14,973 nt of DNA, taken from positions 1 through 14,973 of the forward strand of contig SUPR01000086.1 in the NCBI GenBank assembly GCA_005191425.1, given 5' to 3'. This document shows, one piece after another, positions 1,695 through 14,483 of the stretch. Origin of the DNA: Candidatus Helarchaeota ASGARD archaeon Hel_GB_B (GTDB lineage Archaea; Asgardarchaeota; Lokiarchaeia; Helarchaeales; HEL-GB-B). The notes beneath the pieces are model-generated. The model made no database searches. It worked only from the letters and a program-made list of their open reading frames with translations, and was not told the origin of the DNA. Position 1 is the first letter of the stretch, and every line of letters begins with the position of its first letter. Position numbers and translations under genes: made by a program.

Positions 1695-3743
1695 TTAATT
1701 TTTTATCAGATTCCAATCAAATGTGGATTTTGAATCTGGTTTTCCCCATATATCTCTTATTTTTTGTCTTAATACTTTTCCGACTGGAGAAATTGGAAAT
1801 TTATCAGCGAAAATTATCGATCTAGGCTTTTTATACCCTGCTATTTTATCTTTACAATAATCAAGTATTTCTTGTTCAGTTACCTTCTTTTTTGGTATAA
1901 TTACTGCTCTGACAATAGAACCCCAAGTTTCATCCGGGACTCCAATTACGACTACATCTTTTACAGCAGGGTGCTCGGCAATAATTTCTTCGACTTCCAA
2001 CGGAAAAACTTTCTCACCACCGGTATTGATACATTCTTTTTTTCGTTCAATAGTATATAATTCTCCATCTTTTAGATATCCAAGATCTCCACTATGAAGC
2101 CATCCCTCTTCATCAATTGTTTTCCTTGTCTTTTGTTCATCACCATAATAACCTTTCATCACATTTGGACCTCTATATAAAATTTCTCCAATTTCACCTT
2201 CAGGCACTTCATTTCCGTTATCATCGATTATTTTGATTTCAATATTTGGGACTGTTATTCCAACACTCCGGTCTCTTATTGTAGATTCATCGCCATCTAT
2301 TTTGACTGAGGCTGCCGGTGCCATTTCAGTTTGTCCAAAAACGTCTAATATTAATGTTTCCGGAAAATATTTCAAAATTTTTTTCTTAATTTTAGCTCTC
2401 AATAAAGCAGCCCCTGAAAAAGCAACTTGTAAAGAGTTAATTCGCATATCGGGTTTCTCATTATCTAAGTATTCTACAATCCATTTCCACATTGTTGGTA
2501 CAAAAAATGTCCATGTAACATCATTGTCTTTCATTAACTCGATAATTTTAGCCGCATTAAAACTTGGGTCGTCCGGTAATACAATTGTTGCACCAGAAAC
2601 AAGCCAATTTAATATAAACAAAGCATAAGATGCCAGATGAAACAATGGTGGTGTTATTAACATAACTGTAATATTTTCTTCGGTTGGTTTTGCAGATAAG
2701 GATTTAATAATGTTTATTCTATCACTGAAACTACCTTCTAAATGAATTCCTCCTAACAAGAATTTATAAATTAAGCCAGGTAATATACTCAACTTTCCTT
2801 TAGTTGTATAAGCTTTTGGTAATATATTAACGAGATCTCGTATTTGGTCAATCAAAGATCCTTTAAAAATGACATCATATTTTTCTGCTTTCCCTTTAAA
2901 CATTTTTAACTTTCCTTCCACTTGCCTAATTGTCATTGGTGGAATAGGCACTGCACCTTTTTTCGTTGGTAGCTCGAAGACCACTATTTTTGTGTCATTA
3001 GGGTCTTTAAACAATTGCTGATAAATTTGTCCAATAAACATGTTAAGAACTCTTAGTAATTTTTCTTCTACTTTACTCCTAGCAAATTTTGGATAATCAA
3101 TATCTTTTACCGAAGGCAAAAATGACATCAGCAAATTAATTGTAGCTTCTTGATTTATCATCATATTTTCATATGATAGAATTACCCCTTTTGGACGACC
3201 AGTAGTCCCACCAGTATAGATAATTACCGAATCATCATCCCATCCAATATTTTTTACTTTAACGACCTTATTTTTTCCTTTTTGGATTAAAGTATCATAA
3301 TTAAACATATCTTCAGGTAATGTTTGATTTTCTGTTGGCTTTGCGATATAAAATCTTACATTTGGTGTATTTGGCTTAGCTTTAAGGACTAAATCTAATA
3401 ATTCACCTTCAAAAATAAGTCCAATTGAATCTGAATTGTTTAGTAAAAATTCAAGTTCGGATGCAACATACCGATAATTTACTGGAACTGGAACTGCACC
3501 CAAAGCTTGTAATGCAATATTTGATTCAAAAAATTCAGGTCTATTATGAAATAATATTGCTACCTTATCACCTTTTTTAATTTTAAGTCCATTAAAATTT
3601 CTCAATGCATATGCTAGTTTATTAATTCTAGAATATTCTTCCTTCCACGTGTATTTTAAATTTCCATAGACAGTAGATATTCTATCTGCTGGATAATTCT
3701 CAGCTTTTATTTTAAACATTTTGTAAAATGGTGAAATTCCCAT
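1695..3743 (-). CDS. Long-chain acyl-CoA synthetase (AMP-forming, ANL superfamily) with a large internal insertion (SCP2-like), 682 aa
   Basis: P-loop IYTGGTTGRPKG (aa 175-186), PPLFH, FGQTE, GEIGEILYRGPNVMKGYY, WLHSGDLG, RKKECINTGGEKVFPLEVE and the terminal lysine motif PISPVGKVLR. The ~180 aa between the P-loop and PLFH is about 140 aa longer than usual. Confidence 0.92.
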   Translation of the reverse strand: MGISPFYKMFKIKAENYPADRISTVYGNLKYTWKEEYSRINKLAYALRNFNGLKIKKGDKVAILFHNRPEFFESNIALQALGAVPVPVNYRYVASELEFLLNNSDSIGLIFEGELLDLVLKAKPNTPNVRFYIAKPTENQTLPEDMFNYDTLIQKGKNKVVKVKNIGWDDDSVIIYTGGTTGRPKGVILSYENMMINQEATINLLMSFLPSVKDIDYPKFARSKVEEKLLRVLNMFIGQIYQQLFKDPNDTKIVVFELPTKKGAVPIPPMTIRQVEGKLKMFKGKAEKYDVIFKGSLIDQIRDLVNILPKAYTTKGKLSILPGLIYKFLLGGIHLEGSFSDRINIIKSLSAKPTEENITVMLITPPLFHLASYALFILNWLVSGATIVLPDDPSFNAAKIIELMKDNDVTWTFFVPTMWKWIVEYLDNEKPDMRINSLQVAFSGAALLRAKIKKKILKYFPETLILDVFGQTEMAPAASVKIDGDESTIRDRSVGITVPNIEIKIIDDNGNEVPEGEIGEILYRGPNVMKGYYGDEQKTRKTIDEEGWLHSGDLGYLKDGELYTIERKKECINTGGEKVFPLEVEEIIAEHPAVKDVVVIGVPDETWGSIVRAVIIPKKKVTEQEILDYCKDKIAGYKKPRSIIFADKFPISPVGKVLRQKIRDIWGKPDSKSTFDWNLIKN

Positions 3744-4085
3744 AATTTACATCTCTTAATTTCTTAATAAGTATTTGTTTATTCATTATCCTAAATTATT
3801 ATTATTTAATTTTAAAATAATTTTAATTTAAAATATATATTTTTGAATTAAAATATTATAACAATAAGTAGTTTAAAAATATTATGACTTAAATTAATTT
3901 AAATTTAACTCAAAAGAGCTCTAAAAATTATGGCTATAATTATAAAGTTTTTTCAGAAATTTATTAATTAATAGAGAATAATTATTCTTTTAAATTCAAC
4001 TTTTTGATTCATTTTAAGATTAAATAATTTTTTCTTATAATTAAAAAAATAAAAAGTTAAAGAATATAGAAGAGGGGAGTTTTTA

Positions 4086-4712
4086 TTATAAAGAAATATA
4101 GATCCAAGCGGTAATAAATGTTATTATCATAAAACAGATTCCAAACCATTGATTTTTGAAAAATTTAATGTAATTTGCTGCTGAAATATCCCATAAATCC
4201 ACATTATATTTGGTCAAATATTTTTTTAGTAATAAATAAATACCTAATGCGCAGAATACACCAGTCGGAGATGCAATTACCATAGGAAAGGGCAAAACGC
4301 CCAATCCAAAATCAATGAATGAATATGGAAATAAATAGCTCATGACTAACAAAATTCCTATAATAAGACCAGTTCCAATTGCAATTCCTAATAAAAAGTT
4401 GACAGTAGGTCTAATGAATGATGGGATTATAAAAATTATTGAATGAATTAACAGAATAATTGTTGGAATAATATAAATTATACCATGCATGGGAGCTAAT
4501 GAATATATTGCTATTTGCATCATTGTTTGAATTAGATTTGCTGCTGCAAATAAAAAGATAGATCCAACCCATAAATAAAATACAGTACCAACATTTCTTT
4601 TTGGCTGAATTTCTAATGATTTTTCATCCCCTAATTTTAATTCCGAAGTGAATTTAATTACGTAGAATATTAAAGCTCCAATTAAAAAGAAAGAAGCATT
4701 TATTTGATACAT
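4086..4712 (-). CDS. Polytopic membrane protein of unknown function (about 6 predicted TM helices, ~208 aa)
   Basis: Long hydrophobic segments throughout. The ORF track starts at GTG 4721, but that GTG lies inside an AGGTG Shine-Dalgarno-like motif 6 nt before ATG 4712, so ATG 4712 is the likelier start. It lies 14 nt after the phosphatase stop, so the two are probably co-transcribed. Confidence 0.7.
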   Translation of the reverse strand: MYQINASFFLIGALIFYVIKFTSELKLGDEKSLEIQPKRNVGTVFYLWVGSIFLFAAANLIQTMMQIAIYSLAPMHGIIYIIPTIILLIHSIIFIIPSFIRPTVNFLLGIAIGTGLIIGILLVMSYLFPYSFIDFGLGVLPFPMVIASPTGVFCALGIYLLLKKYLTKYNVDLWDISAANYIKFFKNQWFGICFMIITFITAWIYISL

Positions 4713-4726
4713 TTTTAACACCTATT

Positions 4727-5920
4727 CTATGGATGATTACTATTTAAAGTAAATTGGTCAAATAATATACCTAGTGAAGTATATGCTTTTACTGTTAAAG
4801 TTAAATTATTTACTTCGACAGAACAAAATTGATGAATATTTTCAGAATATTGAGTTCCTGCTTCACTCCCAATATATACTTCATTTTCAGAACCACCACC
4901 ACCTGTAACGACATATTGAACTCCGTCCACGAAAATTCGTTCATATTGATGGTCATGTCCACTAAAAACTAAATCTACTTTATATTGCGTAAAAATTGGT
5001 TGTAGGTCTTGAATTTCATAAGGGTCATCTCCGTATCCTCCTGACGAATACAGTGGGACATGAAAAAAGATTATAATCCAATTAATTTTCGAACTAGAAT
5101 TTGCTTTATTTAAATCGTTAATTAACCACGCTTTTTGAGCACTTGAAATATGTACATTTGAAACAGATAAATTTAAGCAAATAATATGCACATTACTGTA
5201 ATTAAATGAATAATACCATTCGTTATTTGGATAATTAAAGAAATTAAAATAATGTTTTCCATTATCACCACTATATTCATTATATTCATGATTTCCTAGT
5301 GTGGTAAAAAAGGGTGCCCGTGCCATAATATCTTTTGCCTCCCAAAAAAATCGATCCCATTGATACTCGAGATTGCTTTGGAATACAATATCGCCTGTAT
5401 GTAAAACAAAAGCTGGATTTGGTTCAGTCTTGAGCATCCTTTTACATATTCTACCATGAGCACTATTTCCGAAAATGTCCGGCCTTGAATCGCCATAAAC
5501 CAGAAAAGTAAAAGGTATTGTGGAATTAGGAGCGGTTTTAAACTGATGGTCTATTAATAATTGAGAGTAATTTTTTATATTTGAAATTATTCTATAATGA
5601 TATATCTTATTTGGCTCAAGTCCAGTTAATGTCACGCTTCTTAAATTACCAATAGAAGGTGTACCTGCTTTTATATTTCCATAACTTATATTCTCACCCC
5701 ATTGAACAGTACCATTCGTAGGAATTGGTGTTTCCCAACTAATTGTCATAGTTGTTTTCGGATCTTCTGTCCATGACAAATAAGGGCCTTTAAGGTTAGG
5801 AGTTTGGAGCCATGGCCCAATATTACTTGTAAACATTATTAATATGAACCCAATGATTATTCCTATTGCTAAAATTATTTTAATTAATCCATTTTTAAAA
5901 TTCTTTTTTAGGCGTGACAT
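4727..5920 (-). CDS. Membrane-anchored metallophosphoesterase of the purple acid phosphatase family (FN3-like N-domain plus calcineurin-like domain), 397 aa
   Basis: N-terminal TM/signal segment (aa ~12-31). FN3-like region (TTMTISWET...VTLTGLEPNKIYHYRI...FKTAP). Metal motifs GDSR, HTGDIV, LGNHE, FFHVP and SGHDHQYER, followed by YVVTGGGG. Confidence 0.9.
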   Translation of the reverse strand: MSRLKKNFKNGLIKIILAIGIIIGFILIMFTSNIGPWLQTPNLKGPYLSWTEDPKTTMTISWETPIPTNGTVQWGENISYGNIKAGTPSIGNLRSVTLTGLEPNKIYHYRIISNIKNYSQLLIDHQFKTAPNSTIPFTFLVYGDSRPDIFGNSAHGRICKRMLKTEPNPAFVLHTGDIVFQSNLEYQWDRFFWEAKDIMARAPFFTTLGNHEYNEYSGDNGKHYFNFFNYPNNEWYYSFNYSNVHIICLNLSVSNVHISSAQKAWLINDLNKANSSSKINWIIIFFHVPLYSSGGYGDDPYEIQDLQPIFTQYKVDLVFSGHDHQYERIFVDGVQYVVTGGGGSENEVYIGSEAGTQYSENIHQFCSVEVNNLTLTVKAYTSLGILFDQFTLNSNHP

Positions 5921-6030
5921 AAATCTATAAAGGTAAAAACATCATATAAAATTTTCTTGAATAAATTTCTTAAAATTTAGATTATTATGTCAATTCATTT
6001 TTTAGATTAAACTTTTGATTTATTTCTTTG

Positions 6031-6060
6031 ATATTTCGATGAATATTTTGCTCGAAATAT
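6031..6060. promoter_or_regulatory. Perfect 9-bp inverted repeat ATATTTCGA-N12-TCGAAATAT in a divergent intergenic region (candidate operator)
   Basis: Arms at 6031-6039 and 6052-6060 are exact reverse complements. They lie between the divergent starts at 5920 (-) and 6187 (+). Function is inferred only. Confidence 0.3.
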
Positions 6061-6186
6061 AATCAATTATCATTAAAATATATGAATTATCTAAAAAACA
6101 ATTATCTTTATAATGAATCTCATTTAAATAAAATATAATGTTATTTACAAGCGGTAATTTAATATTTTAAGGACTGAAATTATAAA

Positions 6187-7377
6187 ATGAGAAATGTAAT
6201 TAAAATAAAGTCAGATTATTATTTTCCAGCAGTTTTAGATAACATATCTGAACAAACTCTGCGAAATAACTTATTAAATTTAGAATTAGAGCCGGTGTAT
6301 TGGGATGATATTGAAATTGGAAATAAAAGTACTATGAAAATTAAAATATCAAATAAATTAATACTACTTTTTATTCTTTTAACTAATAATTTTATATTGA
6401 TTTCAAATAATTTAGACTCTATGATAGCAGGAGGGACATTATTACTCAGCTTTATTTCTGGGTTAACTGGAATTTATCTTTTAGGAGCTGGTATTTTTTT
6501 AATTGAAAAAAAAGAGGCTGAATTTTATCATATTGTAAAAGAAAATGATTTTATAATTGTTCAATCAGAGATTATAAAAAAATGGACTGAAATGAAACAT
6601 AATAAGACAAGATATTTTGTAGAGATAAGTCAAAAAATCTATTTGGTCAATAACAATATAAAATATGATAAAAAGAAATTATTGGTTGGTAAGACAGGCG
6701 CAATTGCAAGCGTACTAAATAAAAGCAGGCCCGATAATATAGAAAAACATCAAATTAAAGAGGAAGTTCATTTCTTTTTACCAAAATTTCTTGAAAATAT
6801 TGATATAAACAATTTGAAAAAAGATATTAAAAAATTAATTGACTATAAAAAAAGAGCAATAATGGAATACATTAAATCAGTTAATTTTAATAATCAAAAT
6901 GTTATTAATGTAGAAAGTAATATTATTTCAATTACATCAAAAATGGTTTTAATTTTTGCATATCTTTCTAATGACTTTAATCCATTACATTGTAGCGAAG
7001 TTTTTGCTTCTAACTTACCTTCAAAACTATTTAATAAAAAGAATATTAGTCATGGAGCTTTAAATATTGGCCTAATTTCTGGTGTTAATAGTATTGTTAA
7101 GTTACTTTTTCCCAATTATAATTTCAAATTGATAAAAAAGAAAAAAGGACAATTTATTAAACCTTTAAAATTTGGGGATAAGATAATTATTAAAAGTGAA
7201 ATGAAATTTGTTAGAGACAGTAAAGATGATAATAATTCGCTCTATTTAGAAACTAATGAAGACGTTTTTCTTTTGCTAGATCAAGAAAATGAAGTTAAAG
7301 AAGTCCTTGCTATTAAATCTGGTTCTATTTATCAAGTATATTGTGAAGGAGATGAAGTGTTTTGGAAGATAAAGTAA
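6187..7377 (+). CDS. Double hot-dog MaoC-like (R)-enoyl-CoA hydratase family protein (degenerate N-domain, intact C-domain), 396 aa
   Basis: The C-domain has FAYLSNDFNPLH (Asp263/His268, the PhaJ-type D-x4-H dyad), ISHG and FIKPLKFGD. The N-domain follows the MaoC pattern (WDDIEIG...LF..LT.NF...IAGG...LISG...G.GI...F...V...D.I) without the dyad. Confidence 0.75.
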   Translation: MRNVIKIKSDYYFPAVLDNISEQTLRNNLLNLELEPVYWDDIEIGNKSTMKIKISNKLILLFILLTNNFILISNNLDSMIAGGTLLLSFISGLTGIYLLGAGIFLIEKKEAEFYHIVKENDFIIVQSEIIKKWTEMKHNKTRYFVEISQKIYLVNNNIKYDKKKLLVGKTGAIASVLNKSRPDNIEKHQIKEEVHFFLPKFLENIDINNLKKDIKKLIDYKKRAIMEYIKSVNFNNQNVINVESNIISITSKMVLIFAYLSNDFNPLHCSEVFASNLPSKLFNKKNISHGALNIGLISGVNSIVKLLFPNYNFKLIKKKKGQFIKPLKFGDKIIIKSEMKFVRDSKDDNNSLYLETNEDVFLLLDQENEVKEVLAIKSGSIYQVYCEGDEVFWKIK

Positions 7378-8210
7378 TTATTACAGCTGCTATAACCGGG
7401 TCAATTCCTTCAAAGAAAAATAATCCAAATATTCCTTATACCCCACAAGAAATTGCTGAAGAAGCTTATAAATCTTATTTAGCTGGGGCATCAGTAATAC
7501 ATTTACATGCCAGAAATCCCGAAACAGGTGTACCTATTAGTGGTAAAGAGAGTGTACCTATATTTAAAGAATACTTAAAATTAATTAAAGAGAAGTGCGA
7601 TATAATTTGTCAAATTACTACTGGTGGTGGCGCTACTACAATTAATGGCATAGAACAATTGGATAGGATTAAACCTGTAATTGAATGTAAACCAGAAATG
7701 GCTTCATTAAATACTGGAAGCTTAAATTTTGGGTCAAAAATTTTTCCTAACCCTCCAGAATTAATAGAAACTTTCGCAAAAATAATGCAAGATTTAAATA
7801 TTAAACCCGAATTAGAAGTTTATGAATTGGGACATATTGAAAGTGCTAAGAAATTAATAATAGAAAAACACTATCTTAATTCACCGCCACAATTTTCCCT
7901 TGTTTTAGGTACTGCCGGGGGCGTCCCTGCTACTCCTAAAAACTTGTTAATAATGAAAGAAGCACTTCCTGTAAATTGTACTTGGCAAGTTATTGCAATC
8001 GGTAAACATCAAATTCCACTTGGAACAATGGGTATAATTATGGGCGGAAATGTTAGAGTAGGATTTGAGGATAATGTATATTTAGAAAAAGGAGTTCTTG
8101 CAAACAGTAATTCGGAATTGGTCGGAAAAATTGCCAGAATCATTAGAGAATTAGGTAAAAAAGTTGCAGATGTAAGTGATGCACGGGAAATTCTTAGTTT
8201 AAAAAAATAA
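7362..8210 (+). CDS. Beta-keto acid cleavage enzyme (BKACE / DUF849, 3-keto-5-aminohexanoate cleavage enzyme family), 282 aa
   Basis: ITAAITG, PNIPYTPQEIAEEA, Zn-binding HLHAR, TTGGG, ASLNTGSLNF, PELEVYELGH and GGNVRVGFEDN. The TTG start at 7362 is preceded by AAGGAG and overlaps the upstream gene by 16 nt. Confidence 0.92.
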   Translation: MEDKVIITAAITGSIPSKKNNPNIPYTPQEIAEEAYKSYLAGASVIHLHARNPETGVPISGKESVPIFKEYLKLIKEKCDIICQITTGGGATTINGIEQLDRIKPVIECKPEMASLNTGSLNFGSKIFPNPPELIETFAKIMQDLNIKPELEVYELGHIESAKKLIIEKHYLNSPPQFSLVLGTAGGVPATPKNLLIMKEALPVNCTWQVIAIGKHQIPLGTMGIIMGGNVRVGFEDNVYLEKGVLANSNSELVGKIARIIRELGKKVADVSDAREILSLKK

Positions 8211-8750
8211 ATATTTTGAAATTAACTGTATTTATCTAATACTTTTTAGATTCATATTGAATTTGATTTTCTTAAGCTAGAGATTAGTAAATATTGAAAT
8301 CACCGTTGCTATTGAGTAAAATTCAAACCCAAGCAATATATTTGTAATTATTACTATTTTTTTTAAATCGTAATGATAATATAATCAGTGCTCCCCAATT
8401 TACGAAAAAATTATGAATTATTGTACAGTTGAAGATATCACAATTTGAAATATGAATACTTAACCATCATTGAAATAATGAATATTAAGTTTAACGAAGT
8501 CCAAATTTTATATTTCCATTTAACAATATTTAATAAGAATTTAAATTACCTGGACAATATTATTTAAATTCAATATTTTAGGACTCTAAGCTAAAAAACT
8601 CAAACTTTTATAAAAAATAGAAAAATATATTGAATATTTATATTTCGTGAGCAAGTAAATATAATAGTCATGATTTTTGTCTATTTTATTGGATTTTATC
8701 TTATTTTTTAGACCTTAAGTTTTCATTTCGTTCTTTTTTCTATAAATTTT

Positions 8751-9683
8751 TTATTTTAACTTTTTCTTATGTTTATAATCTACTACTGATCCAAGTTTTA
8801 CTCCTGCTACAATTCCTAATACGATTAAGATTATATATACTGGAAATGATAACTGGAATTTTGTTTCTCCATATCGCACATATTTTACCAAAAAAGCATC
8901 ATCACTACCTGCTCCAAAACTCGCAGTATATCCGCAGAGATATACATTATTTTCACTGTCTACTGCTATAGCATTGCCAATATCCCAGTTTATTCCACCC
9001 CATGTAGTATTCCACAGCGGGACACCGCTTGTGCTATATTTTACCAGAAATGCATCGGCATTTCCTGCTCTAAAACTCATAGTTTCTCAGCAGATATATA
9101 TATTATTCGCGATGTCCACTACCACACCAAAACCTTCATCGTCAGATGCACCACCCCACATAATATTCCATAACTGAACCCCATTAGAATTATATTTCGC
9201 CAAGAATACATCATATCCACCCGATCCAAAACTCCCAGTTTCTCCACAGAGATATATATTATTTTCACTGTCTATTGCTACACCAGTGCCAGCATCAGAA
9301 TACTCGCCACCCCATGTAATATACCATAATAGAATACCTACAGGATCATACTTTACTAAAAATGCGTCATAATCGCTTATTCCATAACTATGAGGATATC
9401 CACTCAGATATAGATTATTCTTATTGTCCAATGCCACAACAGTGCCAATATCGTCAGATGTACCGCCCCATGTAATATTTAATTTATCTAAATACAACAT
9501 ATTATTCGAGGACGAAGATGAAGCTGATTTAATTATTTTATTTTTATCATTATTTTCCTTATTTTGATTATTAGTTTTCAAAAAATAAACATTGGATATA
9601 TTTAAGTATAATATCGCATAGAAAGAGAGAGTTAATATAATTAATAGCGAAAGTGTTAAAATTTTTGTATTTTTTGACTTCAT
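8751..9683 (-). pseudogene. SBBP-type beta-propeller repeat surface protein (N-terminal signal/TM, four 52-aa repeats, C-terminal TM with basic tail) interrupted by an in-frame TGA at 9087-9089
   Basis: ORFs 9087..9683 and 8751..9080 are in the same frame and read through as NNIYIC*ETMSFRAGNADAFLVKY. Sister repeats read NNIYLCGETGSFGSGGYDVFLAKY and NNVYLCGYTASFGAGSDDAFLVKY, with GGA at the TGA position. Confidence 0.8.
8868..9479 (-). repeat. Four tandem 156-bp (52-aa) coding repeats, WGG...D.G..VA.D..NNIY..G.T.SFG.G..DAFL.KY...G..LW
   Basis: WGG occurs at aa 72, 124, 176 and 228, an exact 52-aa period. At DNA level 8935-8968 and 9247-9280 match at 32 of 34 nt (offset 312 = 2 x 156). Confidence 0.9.
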
Positions 9684-10574
9684 ATATTTCTCAACAATAA
9701 TTAATATATTATTTATACAAATACAGCATTAATCTAAATTATTCATATATTAAAATTAGTCTTTTAATATAAGTTTAAAAATTATTCTATCACTTAAAGT
9801 TCAATATATTGAATTTTATTAAATTAAAAGAGAACATCAATAAAAATAGATTATACAAAGAAGATTGAATAATAAAAAACTTTTAGGATATCTAAATAAC
9901 GATAAATGAAAAAATATATAGTAAACAATACAATAGAAGCGTATTAAATATAGTAAATAAATAATGATGGATTAATTGCGAAAAAAGAATTTTTTAAATT
10001 CTATTGTAGATGAAAAATAATAATTTTTAAATAAAACCATTAAGATTTAAACTTTTTAACAATAGATACGAATTTAAACAATAGATAAACAAATATTTGG
10101 ATAAATTAAGGATAGACCATAACATTTTTGAGTATCTCTTTTACCAATTTCAAAATTTTTTTTATAGTAAAATAGGAATTTAAAATTGCTTTTTAAGTAG
10201 ACACAAAACGCTTCCCTTTAAAATCTAATAATCTTTTGAAGATGGTCTTTTATATAAATATCAAGTTTATTTTCTTTTATATTGGGCAAGTTAAAATTGC
10301 TTTTAAAAATTAAACAAATTATAAGAATTTCAACATTATTCTAAAGACTGAAATTGAATTTTTTAATTAGAAATTTATATTTAATATTCTCCAGAAATCC
10401 TTGTTTAATATTATTTATATGCCCTCAAATATATCAATATCAAAAGATTTCCCCGGATTTTATATTTTTTGGAGAGAATTTAAATTATTTAAATAATTTA
10501 ACTATATAAAGATTTTATAAAATTTCAATTTTATTAATATTAATTTTGTTTTGGACCATTTTCTCGAATACAAT

Positions 10575-10595
10575 GCTAAAATTTTAATATATATG
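10575..10595 (+). promoter_or_regulatory. Possible archaeal BRE/TATA promoter for the thiolase-DUF35 operon (possibly leaderless)
   Basis: gctaaaa-ttttaatatata places TTTAATAT at 10583-10590, about 23-30 nt before ATG 10613, and there is no clear Shine-Dalgarno site. The AT-rich background makes this weak. Confidence 0.3.
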
Positions 10596-10612
10596 AATAT
10601 AAAGTATGATTC

Positions 10613-11815
10613 ATGCCGAAAAAAGTTGCAATAGTTGGGATTAGTGCATTTCCGTTTAGAGTTCGTCATCCACATTATACATATTATAGAATGGCATTTG
10701 AAACAACGAAAATGGCACTTGAAAATGCAAATTTATCTATAAATGACATTGATTCAGCAGTTTATGGTATTTACAATGATTTTTTTGAGAGGCAATTTAT
10801 GCCGGATATTATAGTCCATGATTATATTGGGATGATTTTAAAACCAGGAACTCGAGTGACTACTGGAGGAGCGACGGGTGGGTATGCTATAAGAACAGCA
10901 TATATGGAAGTAGCGAGTGGATTATCAGATGTAGTATTATGTCTAGGAGTGGAGAAATCAAATGATTGTTGGGATCCAAATACGGATACTCGTACTCCTG
11001 AACTTGTTAAAGCGATAAGTTATAGTGCGGATTGTGAATTTGTTAGACCACTTGGCTCATTTCCAGCAGCATCTTATGTATTACCTGTAAGGGCACATAT
11101 TGAGAAGTTTGGAAATCCAAGTGAAGAATCTATGGCACGAGTATCTGTAAAAAACCATGGGAATGCTATAGGAAACCCAAATGCGCAATCTCCTATGAAA
11201 ATTACCGTTGAAGATGTTTTAAATTCAAGATATATTTCAGAACCTTTTAAAAAATTAGATTGTTGTCTTTATAGTGAAGGTGCTGCTGCTATGATTTTAG
11301 CCTCTGAAGAGAAAGCAAAGGAAATATGTAAAAATAGTGGAAATGAGCCCATTTGGATAACTGGAATTGGGGCGGGAAATGATTCAAATTTTGGTGGACT
11401 TCGGAAAAATCTATGGTCTTTGACTTCAAATGTTTATGCAAGCAAACAATGTTATAAAATGGCTAATATTAAGAATCCACTTAAAGAATTAGATGTTGCA
11501 GAACTTCATGATGCTTTTACAGGACAAGAAATACTAAGTTACGAAGACTGTGGATTTATTGAACATGGAAAAGGTTATACTTTAATTGATGAAGGCATCG
11601 TTGAAGAAGGTGGCGAATTACCAGTTAATTTATCTGGAGGTTTAATAGGCTGCGGGCATGCTGTAGGAGCTACAGGTATTTATCAAGCAACTGAAATTGT
11701 TAAACAATTAAGAGGAGAGTCCCATAGACAGGTTTCGGATGCTGAAAAAGGACTTCTACATAGTGTTGGCGGCCCAGTTACTGCTTATTGTGTATGTATT
11801 ATAATGGAGAGATAA
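10613..11815 (+). CDS. Thiolase-superfamily protein of the SCP2-thiolase/archaeal type, lacking the canonical nucleophilic Cys, 400 aa
   Basis: VAIVG N-terminus, VVLCLGVEK, VSVKNHGNAIGNPNAQ, CCLYSEGAAAMILAS, AELHDAFT, VNLSGGLIGCGHAVGATG and HSVGG. The usual xxACASGG loop reads TTGGATGG. Confidence 0.88.
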   Translation: MPKKVAIVGISAFPFRVRHPHYTYYRMAFETTKMALENANLSINDIDSAVYGIYNDFFERQFMPDIIVHDYIGMILKPGTRVTTGGATGGYAIRTAYMEVASGLSDVVLCLGVEKSNDCWDPNTDTRTPELVKAISYSADCEFVRPLGSFPAASYVLPVRAHIEKFGNPSEESMARVSVKNHGNAIGNPNAQSPMKITVEDVLNSRYISEPFKKLDCCLYSEGAAAMILASEEKAKEICKNSGNEPIWITGIGAGNDSNFGGLRKNLWSLTSNVYASKQCYKMANIKNPLKELDVAELHDAFTGQEILSYEDCGFIEHGKGYTLIDEGIVEEGGELPVNLSGGLIGCGHAVGATGIYQATEIVKQLRGESHRQVSDAEKGLLHSVGGPVTAYCVCIIMER

Positions 11816-11818
11816 TAA

Positions 11819-12337
11819 ATGAATAATGTTCCGAAAAAAGATTTTAAAGAAAAATTATTGGCTCAAATTGATCAATTAAACAAAGACCCAAATTTCCATG
11901 AATATTATGATGAAATGATCATTCATTATAAATATTCAGTTGGTGAACTATCAAAATTTTTTGTAGAAATTAGAGATAACGCCAAACTATTTGGTACTAA
12001 ATGTACGAAATGTGGATTTGGATATTTTCCTCCTAGATTATATTGTAATAAATGTTATACAAAATGTGAATGGACTGAGTTAAGTGGTAAAGGGGAAATT
12101 ATAGCGGGTACAATTGCTCATTTTGGAGTCAGTGCTTTTACAGATAAAGTCCCAATTTCAATTGCATTTATAAAAATGGACGGAATGGACATGGCAATTC
12201 GGCATACCATAGTTATGGACGAAGCTGATTATAAGATAGAAAATATGAAAAAAGGCACACGAGTTAAAGTCCAATTTAAGCCTAAAGAAAAGCGTGAAGG
12301 TAAGATTACCGATTTTTACTTTGTTCTGGACAAATAG
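11819..12337 (+). CDS. DUF35-family Zn-ribbon/OB-fold protein (thiolase partner subunit), 172 aa
   Basis: KCTKCG...FPPRLYCNKC Zn ribbon, then WTELSGKGEI and an OB-fold ending GTRVKVQF. It starts 3 nt after the thiolase stop, with GGAGAG upstream. Thiolase-DUF35 pairing is well established. Confidence 0.9.
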   Translation: MNNVPKKDFKEKLLAQIDQLNKDPNFHEYYDEMIIHYKYSVGELSKFFVEIRDNAKLFGTKCTKCGFGYFPPRLYCNKCYTKCEWTELSGKGEIIAGTIAHFGVSAFTDKVPISIAFIKMDGMDMAIRHTIVMDEADYKIENMKKGTRVKVQFKPKEKREGKITDFYFVLDK

Positions 12338-12374
12338 ACTTAATTATAAATATAGTCTAAAATTTATTAAAACT

Positions 12375-12394
12375 AATTTTTTGAAAAAAATTTT
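12375..12394. terminator. Possible bidirectional poly-T terminator between the convergent DUF35 and acyl-CoA dehydrogenase genes
   Basis: aaTTTTTTgAAAAAAAtttt gives a T-run on each strand. Archaeal termination commonly uses oligo-T. Weak in this base composition. Confidence 0.25.
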
Positions 12395-12440
12395 AGAATT
12401 AAATATCAATTTTTAATTTTTTAAAAAGAGTTTGAATGAA

Positions 12441-13586
12441 TTATCTACCCAATTCTTCTCTAGCAATAATCAATCTTTGGATTTGGTCTGTACCTCCGCC
12501 TATTTGCATTAATTTCATGTCTCTTAAATATCGTTCTACAGGATAATCTTTGGTATAACCATCTCCACCACAAATTTGAATAGCATTTAAGCATATTTGA
12601 ATACCATTGCTAGCTGCAAATAATTTAGCCATGGCTGCCTCTTTAAACGGATTTTTACCTGCATCAATGTCTTTACAAAGATGATAAAGCATTAACCTAG
12701 CTGCATAGCAATTTGTTACCATATCGGCGACCATGTGTCTTATAGCTTGAAATTTGGAAACTGGCCTATCAAATTGAACTCTCTGTTTTGCATATTCCTT
12801 AGCTGTTTTAATGGCACCCAACATTAAACCGGTAGCTTCTGCAGTTGCAGTTGCCCTCTCAGTAACAAACATTTTCATTAGTATATTAAACCCTTCATTC
12901 AGATTTCCTAACAAATTTTCTTTAGGTACTCTAACATCTTTTAAGTCTAACTTAACGTTATGAACTCCACGCATCCCCATTAAATCAAACCGCTTTTCAA
13001 CAGTTAATCCCGGCGTTCCTTTAGGTATTATAAATGCGCTCATTCCTTTTTGAGGTCTTGATGCATTTGAGTTTGTTATTGCCCACAAAACATGCTGCCC
13101 AAGGCCACCGTTTGTTATAAATCGTTTTTTTCCATTTATAACCCATTCATCTCCTTCTAATACTGCTTTGGTTTCCATCCTTGCAGCATCAGACCCAACT
13201 TGTGGTTCAGTTATACATATACTCCCAAGAGTTTTTCCTTCAGCTATAGGCCTCAAAAATTTCTCTTTTTGTTCATGGGTTCCTGCAATATTTATTACTA
13301 CTCCAGAATAAATTGTTGCATTCCTTGCCATAGAAACAGCAGCACTTACCTGTGCCAACTCTTCGACTACAATACAATGATATAAAACTCCTTTTTCAGA
13401 ACCACCATATTTTTTAGGAAATGGTAATCCAAAATATTTTTTACCAATTTCTTCGAAAATTTTATTGGGAATTTCATTTGTCTGTTCTATTTCTTTTGAA
13501 TATGGCTTAATTTTTTCCTTTATAAATTCTTGTACTGACTTTCTAAATTCTTCCTCTTCTTTTGTGAAAATTGAATATTCCTTCAT
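12441..13586 (-). CDS. Acyl-CoA dehydrogenase (catalytic Glu at the IVD/LCAD-type position), 381 aa
   Basis: [72 protein letters not shown] and [11 protein letters not shown]. Confidence 0.95.
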
Positions 13587-14039: not shown

Positions 14040-14483
14040 TTAACTAGGATAAATTGCAAGCATTCTTTGAATTTCGCGGTCTAAGCCCATCTCACCGATA
14101 GCTCCAACTACTTGATGTACTGGCCTACCATTTTTAAAGAAAATAAATCTTGGTATGCTTTGTACATTTAGTCGTAAGGCTGTTCTTCTATTTTGTTCCG
14201 TATTTAATTTGCAAAATTGTACTTGTGGATATTTATAAGATAAATTGTGGAATGGTACTGCCATCATTTTACAAGGATAGCACCAATCAGCCCAGAAATC
14301 TATCAATATTAATTTTTCTGTACTGGATATTATATGATCAAAATTTTGATCTGTTAAATTAATAATCTCCGATCTTACCGGTTCTTTTTTTACTGTCTCT
14401 TCAGTTTTCTGTGAGGAATATCTTAATAATTCCTTAAGTTTTCTTTTTCTAATTTTTTCCAGTTCGGGGTCATCATTACTCAT
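14040..14483 (-). CDS. trxA: Thioredoxin with N-terminal charged helix extension, active site WCYPC, 147 aa
   Basis: IDFWADWCYPCKMM (Cys68/Cys71), FCKLNTE, VQSIPRFIFFKNG and VVGA. The N-terminal extension is DDPELEKIRKRKLKELL. AGGTAA lies upstream of the ATG. Confidence 0.88.
   Translation of the reverse strand: MSNDDPELEKIRKRKLKELLRYSSQKTEETVKKEPVRSEIINLTDQNFDHIISSTEKLILIDFWADWCYPCKMMAVPFHNLSYKYPQVQFCKLNTEQNRRTALRLNVQSIPRFIFFKNGRPVHQVVGAIGEMGLDREIQRMLAIYPS

Follow-up and report, generated by a model that had tools for sequence, protein, structure and literature searches.

The stretch analyzed here, referred to as the window, is the whole of a 14,973-bp contig (C169) in the genome of an Asgard archaeon of the order Helarchaeales (G000; 3.54 Mb, 28% G+C, 94% complete), and this study concerns a group of acyl-CoA enzyme genes that it carries. 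They encode an acyl-CoA ligase with an inserted subdomain, a fused MaoC protein and a BKACE, a thiolase-like protein devoid of the nucleophilic Cys together with a DUF35 protein, and an acyl-CoA dehydrogenase (ACAD). A first-pass annotation of the DNA had assigned it to an archaeon and singled out these five unusual enzyme features; the archaeal host was borne out, and all five features were confirmed with the genes at the positions claimed. The thiolase-like/DUF35 pair, the BKACE, the MaoC protein and the ACAD probably form a previously unstudied, thiolase-free route for cutting lipid-like chains, and their linkage is only partly conserved.

The thiolase-like protein lacks the thiolase nucleophile

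The thiolase-like gene (10613-11815, + strand), whose product was aligned to 7yvy, 4yzo and 6esq, is followed with a spacing of 4 nt by the gene of a 172-residue DUF35 protein (11819-12337, + strand), which stands alone as a zinc ribbon plus an OB fold (Pfam zf-ChsH2 and OB_ChsH2_C). In alignments with the archaeal thiolases 7yvy and 6esq, Gly86 (nucleotides 10868-10870) takes the place of their nucleophilic Cys, and the second motif read HDAF instead of HDCF; both thiolase histidines were kept (HDAF; GCGHAVGATG). As far as the alignments can tell, the protein is not a thiolase, because the nucleophilic Cys is absent, and no acyl-enzyme would be possible. Ltp2 and Sal, the known aldolases of this fold, hold their catalytic Tyr in a YDHF or YDCY motif (PMC12329534), and the protein does not qualify as an aldolase of the Ltp2/Sal kind because this Tyr is absent from HDAF. 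The closest relatives in the PDB were 7yvy (E 3e-55) and 6esq (1e-43), followed by Ltp2 (6ok1, 1.4e-30) and Sal (9myr, 5e-27).

Gly was found at the nucleophile position in all 11 aligned members of the clade, which is defined by the GGATGG/HDAF/GCGHAVGATG signature kept across it. The clade has three branches, namely the orthologues (G002, G004, G005 and G006, all of the order, at 87-90% identity), a paralogous group (57-61% identity, in most of the Lokiarchaeia searched) and one Syntrophaceae member (56%). All of the examined orthologues and paralogues were paired with a DUF35 gene.

Two further observations concern related genes. On another contig of the same genome (L121, G000:C96, 1-4414), a thiolase-fold gene with Pro at the Cys position and HDAF lies, with a weak DUF35-like open reading frame (ORF), between the genes for the subunits of a B12-dependent acyl-CoA mutase. 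Among the thiolase-like matches in relatives, those at G014:C14, G014:C2 and G002:C175 each had a single internal TAA codon.

A predicted double hot dog hydratase is coupled to a BKACE outside the Kce clade

The MaoC protein (396 residues; 6187-7377, + strand) was recognized by Pfam MaoC on residues 245-346 only and is a tandem duplicate, with an N-half of residues 1-183 and a C-half of about residues 216-396. The N-half (residues 10-182) was 35% identical (E 7e-35) to a stand-alone MaoC of 185 residues from G004, which Pfam recognizes at 9e-17. It carries LTNNFILISNNLD where the stand-alone protein has LANDYNPIHVD, and IAGG where the latter has IAHG, which amounts to the changes D to N, H to S and HG to GG, with nine residues deleted after the motif. 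The hydratase motif of the C-half is intact (D263, H268 and H289-G290). One non-catalytic unit is thus joined to one catalytic unit with a D-x4-H motif, as in hydratase-2-type enzymes (MFE-2, ChsH1/ChsH2, HadAB), and the protein reads as a double hot dog with a dead N-half and a live C-half, because the former has lost the D, H and HG that the latter retains. Such full-length fusions are rare: two homologues were found among 1.84 billion representative proteins.

It was also considered whether the thiolase-like protein might serve as a scaffold or other non-catalytic partner within a complex of the archaeal KT/DUF35 type, comparable to that of thiolase, HMG-CoA synthase and DUF35 or to the fatty-acid synthase complex of Sulfolobus acidocaldarius, with the MaoC protein docked as its dehydratase. 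Asgard genomes have multiplied their KT/DUF35 pairs, a MaoC dehydratase is known to be bound by KT/DUF35 (bioRxiv 10.1101/2024.07.05.601840), the closest full-length homologues of the MaoC protein follow canonical operons of thiolase, HMG-CoA synthase (HMGCS) and DUF35 in G002 and G006, and the 87-90% conservation shows that the thiolase-like protein is under strong constraint. However, the nucleophilic Cys that a condensing complex requires is not supplied by any thiolase encoded nearby in the window, and the recurrent neighbors are of catabolic types (ACAD, ligase and BKACE). A structural or anabolic role is therefore considered improbable.

The BKACE gene (7362-8210, + strand; Pfam BKACE, 1.2e-95) shares a 16-nt overlap with the MaoC gene, and the two are translationally coupled. 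The residues of the zinc site, HxH (HLH) and FED (GFEDN), are kept, and with them the zinc and catalytic core. In Kce, the 5-amino group of the substrate is bound by Glu14 (PMC10470551); the enzyme of the window has Ile at this position, the surrounding loop being ITGSIPS versus ICGAEVT in true Kce. The protein scored 320.9 bits versus an NCBIfam Kce cut-off of 382. In the tree it was joined first by the G005 orthologue (74%), then by the enzyme of the Syntrophaceae locus L012 (56%) and then by three other Helarchaeales enzymes, in a clade apart from the well-supported clade of true Kce. The lysine-fermentation markers Kal (NF052388) and KamD (PF09043) were found in neither G000 nor G005. The same searches detected them in the positive controls G010, G032 and G040, where true Kce genes lie beside kamD, with kal directly adjoining too in G010 and G040.

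These results confirmed the first-pass view of the BKACE as a non-Kce enzyme. That it is nevertheless the Kce of lysine fermentation, with the MaoC protein replacing Kal, could be argued from its 48-49% identity to true Kce and from the hot-dog gene upstream, since in Lokiarchaeia Kal is encoded directly upstream of true Kce, in the position that the MaoC gene has in the window. Against the Ile at Glu14, the separate clade and the missing Kal and KamD, this possibility is scarcely credible. The true lysine-fermentation loci belong to Lokiarchaeia of another family (L123, G010:C5; L124, G040:C14; L125, G032:C10); Glu14 is present in their Kce, which nest among bacterial Kce in the tree.

A search for longer homologues of the DUF35 protein returned nothing, those of the BKACE (495 residues and up) included no fusion with DUF35, no ORF among the examined loci combined the two, and the literature searched held no mention of BKACE together with DUF35.

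The acyl-CoA dehydrogenase and the steroid side-chain analogy

The ACAD gene (12441-13586, - strand; Pfam ACAD N, M and C domains) is convergent with the DUF35 gene. The protein has Glu (TER) at the position of IVD Glu254 and MCAD Thr255, and Gly (IGGGT) at the position of MCAD Glu376. This is the IVD/LCAD-type arrangement, defined by a catalytic Glu on helix G with Gly or Ala at the MCAD Glu376 position. Nine ACADs of the genome were aligned and six of them share this base placement, which says little about the substrate because it is the majority type there.

The gene set had initially been likened to the steroid side-chain pathway, and an archaeal counterpart of the actinobacterial/proteobacterial system (ChsE, ChsH1/ChsH2, Ltp2 or Sal) acting on sterol-like substrates would indeed share a similar parts list: ligase, ACAD, dead/live MaoC, DUF35 and a thiolase fold with Gly as in CtSal, to which SCP2-type modules may be added. 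The analogy did not hold. HDAF replaces YDHF/YDCY and leaves the protein without the catalytic Tyr; the DUF35 protein is not fused to the hydratase; the window has a single ACAD gene instead of the two adjacent genes of a ChsE-type alpha2beta2 heteromer; and the matches to 6ok1 and 9myr are far below that to 7yvy. No ring-degrading genes were found, and the organism is a sediment anaerobe. A steroid-type system is accordingly regarded as very improbable. Nor did any of the analyses point to an isoprenoid or sterol-like substrate.

Tandem-fused ACADs occurred only in paralogous clusters of relatives. Proteins of about 775 residues, each composed of two complete ACAD units in tandem that both have the IVD-type base, are encoded at L096:4353-6680 (- strand) and L097:15219-17540 (+ strand), and tandem ACADs adjoin paralogous thiolase-like/DUF35 or ligase-MaoC genes in G004, G005 and G006.

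The ligase carries a putative SCP2-like insert

The acyl-CoA (ANL) ligase (682 residues; 1695-3743, - strand) was recognized by Pfam AMP-binding in two stretches and by AMP-binding_C. Every core ANL motif is present, the best match in the PDB was Mycobacterium tuberculosis FadD5 (8r2q), and the full-length AlphaFold2 model adopted the ANL fold (pLDDT 83.8). In the alignment with FadD5, about 160 residues (residues 196-356; 2676-3158, - strand) are inserted between the P-loop and the PLFH motif, where FadD5 has about 14 residues. The insert had no match in Pfam or the ESM Atlas. Within the full-length model it formed a subdomain of the order helix-helix, four strands, helix-helix, strand, helix, and when modeled alone by AlphaFold2 it reached a pLDDT of 70.8. 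Nearly all top Foldseek matches of this model were of the SCP2 fold, UbiJ-SCP2 being the best (E 1.7e-4), followed by SCP2-like-2, mosquito SCP2-like proteins, human SCP2, the SCP-2L domain of MFE-2 and the C-terminal domains of alkylsulfatases. VIA-align, which is independent of Foldseek, retrieved SCP2 matches at Z 5.0-5.9 with 93-111 residues aligned. The scores are modest (E 1.7e-4, TM 0.45-0.59, Z 5-6, at a model pLDDT of 70.8) and the agreement of two aligners is striking; an SCP2-like domain is the best reading of the model and appears rather more likely to be right than wrong.

Of the six other genomes in the order, five had orthologues of the insert (61-79% identical) and one, G005, had only insert-bearing paralogues (30-33% identical). 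Each genome of the order has two to four insert-bearing ligase genes, three of them in G000, and no such insert was found in 34 other Lokiarchaeia genomes. A CoA ligase with an SCP2 insert was not described in the literature searched. The ligase gene is convergent with fumC (140-1519, + strand), and this pair is kept in G001, a genome of the same genus (L105, G001:C299; fumC 75%, ligase 80% identical). The adjacency of fumC and ligase was the sole orthologue-level synteny found for the window. The ligase probably activates a hydrophobic acid and may belong to another pathway; its membership in the module is doubtful.

The enzyme families recur together but the orthologues are dispersed

Co-location in the window was assessed with the 43 acyl-CoA units of the genome. 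In 20,000 random placements, four acyl-CoA units fell within 12 kb in about 1% of cases (P about 0.01), and on no contig other than C169 did more than two of these families occur. Where a Cys-less thiolase-fold gene is paired with a DUF35 gene, the recurrent neighbors were genes for IVD-type ACADs, MaoC hydratases, CoA ligases, SCP2 proteins and BKACEs. The plainest case was the Syntrophaceae locus L012, where genes for a thiolase-like protein (56% identity), DUF35 (40%), BKACE (56%), ligase, MaoC and ACAD are contiguous on one strand, the thiolase-like, DUF35 and BKACE genes being of the same clades as those of the window. Upstream of the thiolase-like gene lie, in order, ACAD, B12 mutase, MeaB, HMGCS-like-DUF35, thiolase and ECH, and the second ACAD is followed by GntR, a TRAP transporter and a carboxyltransferase. 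Among 40 relatives of this bacterium, no orthologue of the thiolase-like gene was found, and none of the BKACE except a 98%-identical fragment of 103 residues in one of them. This pattern fits a block of thiolase-like and BKACE genes exchanged, in either direction, between bacteria and archaea; the thiolase-like tree is a polytomy.

Paralogous clusters were seen in Helarchaeales and in other Lokiarchaeia. G004 encodes, within 8 kb, a thiolase-like protein (60%), DUF35, SCP2, a tandem-fused ACAD, MDR, a ligase and MaoC. In G032 and G010 the cluster comprises ACAD, thiolase-like protein, DUF35, SCP2 (verified for G032) and ECH, and a BKACE gene lies at a distance of 7-9 kb. These BKACEs belong to a second clade, whose Lokiarchaeia members lie 7-10 kb from a thiolase-like/DUF35 pair and whose Dehalococcoidia members, sister to the BKACEs of G032 and G010, directly adjoin genes for DUF35 and Cys-less thiolase-like proteins.

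Stand-alone SCP2 genes were observed directly after DUF35 at L096:3556-3972 and L110:11626-11991 (both + strand; Pfam 22.4-22.6 bits, cut-off 21.3), and the resulting operon of thiolase-like protein, DUF35 and SCP2 is a split counterpart of the domain order of SCPx. In L110 (G032:C8, 678-19901), a PFL-like glycyl-radical enzyme gene adjoins two further Cys-less thiolase-like genes (YDPF and DDRF) with two DUF35 genes; ACAD, thiolase-like protein (GGATGG/HDAF), DUF35, SCP2, ECH and BKACE follow, interspersed with PIN-domain genes.

The order is represented by seven genomes, in which the thiolase-like protein and the ACAD (orthologues at 75-79% identity) had the same distribution: both were present in G000, G002, G004, G005 and G006, and neither was found in G001 or G003. 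In G001, which is 93% complete, the fumC and ligase genes are present, and the thiolase-like pair, ACAD, BKACE and MaoC fusion were not found. At the genus level, these four units behave as a block, because they are missing together from G001.

Several findings count against a common pathway. The window has these genes on both strands and interrupted by a phosphatase, a membrane protein and a broken SBBP gene, and no 3-hydroxyacyl-CoA or aldehyde dehydrogenase is encoded in it. In G005, the best-assembled relative (10 contigs), the orthologues of the thiolase-like pair (88%), the ACAD (75%) and the BKACE (74%) are spread over three contigs (C3, C1 and C2), and the BKACE gene there is preceded by an Lrp/AsnC regulator rather than by a MaoC gene. 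No partner family was seen in the 10 kb flanking the thiolase-like orthologues of G005 and G002, their neighbors being helix-turn-helix regulators, a glycosyltransferase, a WD40 protein and QueT. Around the ligase orthologue of G003 and the ligase paralogues, partner families were likewise missing over 8 kb or more (the contigs of the remaining ligase orthologues are too short to judge neighbors), and the ligases of the conserved clusters have no insert. The operon setting of the closest MaoC fusions described above points the same way, and the chemistry of the thiolase-like protein is a guess, as the catalytic Tyr of the known thiolase-fold aldolases is absent.

Much of this would also be expected if the proximity were coincidental, with five independent members of large paralogous families serving different pathways in an Asgard genome that degrades lipids and acids, and only the MaoC-BKACE and thiolase-like-DUF35 pairs being functional units. 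Such families are abundant in the genome (14 ligases, 10 ACADs, 8 thiolase-fold genes and 3 BKACEs), and the dispersed orthologues of G005, the partnerless flanks, the solitary insert-bearing ligases, the strand changes and the intervening unrelated genes are all in keeping with coincidence. On the other hand, chance would have to account for the permutation result, for the same families from the same clades being contiguous in L012 and recurring in G004, G032 and G010, and for the perfect co-occurrence of the thiolase-like and ACAD orthologues in the order. Coincidence is rated as somewhat unlikely.

The first-pass proposal of a single pathway was therefore upheld in part: the recurrence of the families in L012, G004, G032 and G010 and the low permutation P value favor it, but the synteny of true orthologues is not conserved, as seen from their dispersal in G005, one of the outcomes that the first-pass annotation had itself named as speaking against it, and the insert-bearing ligase, which usually stands alone, is a doubtful member. 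We assign a probability of about 0.45 to the reading that the core is a real but loosely organized module acting on hydrophobic acyl-CoA esters without thiolysis.

A proposed route without thiolysis

The mechanism outlined here is inferred throughout. In the proposed module, the ACAD would form a 2-enoyl-CoA, and the MaoC double hot dog would interconvert enoyl-CoA and (R)-3-hydroxyacyl-CoA; a bulky chain may be accommodated by its dead half, in which the motif region is shorter. In the complex of the Cys-less thiolase-fold protein and DUF35, the retained oxyanion-hole histidines would stabilize the acetyl-CoA enolate, and a C-C bond would be cut or made directly in a lyase/aldolase-type reaction with no acyl-enzyme, DUF35 providing the docking. 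The docking of MaoC in two known assemblies speaks for such a module: the KT/DUF35/MaoC complex of Sulfolobus acidocaldarius (bioRxiv 10.1101/2024.07.05.601840), and Shy-Sal, where a MaoC hydratase docks with the DUF35/thiolase-fold partner (PMC12329534). The BKACE would act on a free beta-keto acid and exchange its acyl group onto CoA, consuming acetyl-CoA and releasing acetoacetate. The MaoC-BKACE pair may most simply be an oxygen analogue of Kal-Kce, in which the BKACE would deliver a 3-hydroxyacyl-CoA (or plain acyl-CoA) for processing by the hot-dog enzyme.

A more far-reaching and decidedly speculative version, which we consider quite unlikely, is an undescribed thiolase-independent shortening of hydrophobic or branched acyl chains in Asgard archaea and, by transfer, in some anaerobic bacteria. 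Here the DUF35-held Cys-less lyase would cleave an intermediate of the 3-hydroxyacyl-CoA type, and the BKACE would re-capture the carbonyl product with acetyl-CoA to yield acyl-CoA and acetoacetate. From a substrate resembling 3-hydroxy-3-alkylglutaryl-CoA, the two products of the lyase would be exactly the two substrates of the BKACE. SCP2-like modules, one of them inside the CoA ligase, would feed lipids into the route. An Atu/Liu-like route, with carboxylation of a beta-methyl branch, was set aside for G000 because no carboxyltransferase (PF01039) was found in that genome.

Routine annotation labels genes of the GGATGG/HDAF clade as thiolases, and in Asgard archaea they are credited to beta-oxidation or fatty-acid synthesis. 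The clade cannot carry out thiolysis, and metabolic reconstructions of this kind are therefore wrong on this point. Should the thiolase-like/DUF35 pair and the BKACE cooperate, they would represent a new anoxic way of breaking C-C bonds of acyl chains. The SCP2-insert ligase and the thiolase-like-DUF35-SCP2 operons also offer a testable link from Asgard lipid metabolism to the domain repertoire of eukaryotic SCPx and MFE-2.

Neighboring genes and genome context

The genes between the enzyme units encode a membrane protein and a purple acid phosphatase (4086-5920, - strand) and an SBBP-repeat protein (8751-9683, - strand), and a thioredoxin gene lies at 14040-14483 (- strand). The SBBP beta-propeller-repeat ORFs are one gene, split by a single in-frame TGA (9087-9089) at the Gly position of the repeat consensus NNIYLCGET (GGA to TGA), which may be a recent nonsense mutation, a sequencing error or a site of read-through. 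No Rfam family and no tRNA were found in the gene-free stretches of the window. The classical 3-hydroxyacyl-CoA dehydrogenase is represented in the genome by one fragment only, at a contig edge. The sequencing runs containing this sequence were DNA only, from marine sediment and hydrothermal vent metagenomes, and no RNA run was listed.

Comparison with known systems

Four known systems share parts with the locus, and a fifth comparison concerns the ACAD. The Ltp2-ChsH2(DUF35)/ChsH1 and Sal-Shy(DUF35) complexes (6ok1, 9myr; PMC12329534) likewise combine a thiolase fold that has lost the nucleophilic Cys (replaced by Gly here and in CtSal) with a DUF35 partner and an associated MaoC hydratase of one dead and one live hot-dog unit. 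Unlike in these complexes, the motif here is HDAF, with neither catalytic Tyr nor Cys, the DUF35 protein is separate, and the dead and live MaoC units are fused together in a protein without a DUF35 domain; there is no steroid context, and the similarity is much lower than that to archaeal thiolases.

The closest kin by sequence (7yvy, then 6esq) belong with the archaeal complex of acetoacetyl-CoA thiolase, HMG-CoA synthase and DUF35 (6esq) and the fatty-acid synthase complex KT/DUF35/ACR/MaoC of S. acidocaldarius (bioRxiv 10.1101/2024.07.05.601840). The locus shares with them the thiolase-DUF35 gene pair, and MaoC docks on KT/DUF35. Both complexes keep the Cys and perform a Claisen condensation, whereas Gly is present in every member of the clade described here.

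With Kce-Kal (2y7d; NF052387, NF052388), the locus has in common the BKACE TIM barrel, the same zinc site and a hot-dog-fold elimination enzyme encoded directly upstream. It differs in the Ile at Glu14, in the separate clade and in the upstream gene, which is that of the double MaoC hydratase.

As in IVD and LCAD (1ivh, 8w0t), helix G of the ACAD carries the catalytic Glu and the position of MCAD Glu376 is taken by Gly, but its best overall matches are Bcd-like enzymes (5ol2).

Eukaryotic peroxisomal SCPx (thiolase-SCP2) and MFE-2 (dehydrogenase, double hot-dog hydratase 2, SCP-2L) combine, as the sequences here also appear to, an SCP2-type thiolase fold, a double hot-dog hydratase whose N-half is dead and whose C-half is live, and SCP2-like modules; the paralogous clusters of relatives encode thiolase-like protein, DUF35 and SCP2 in one operon. 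The resemblance is one of domain make-up, and there are differences: SCPx is a true thiolase with Cys, and the putative SCP2-like module of the window lies inside a CoA ligase.

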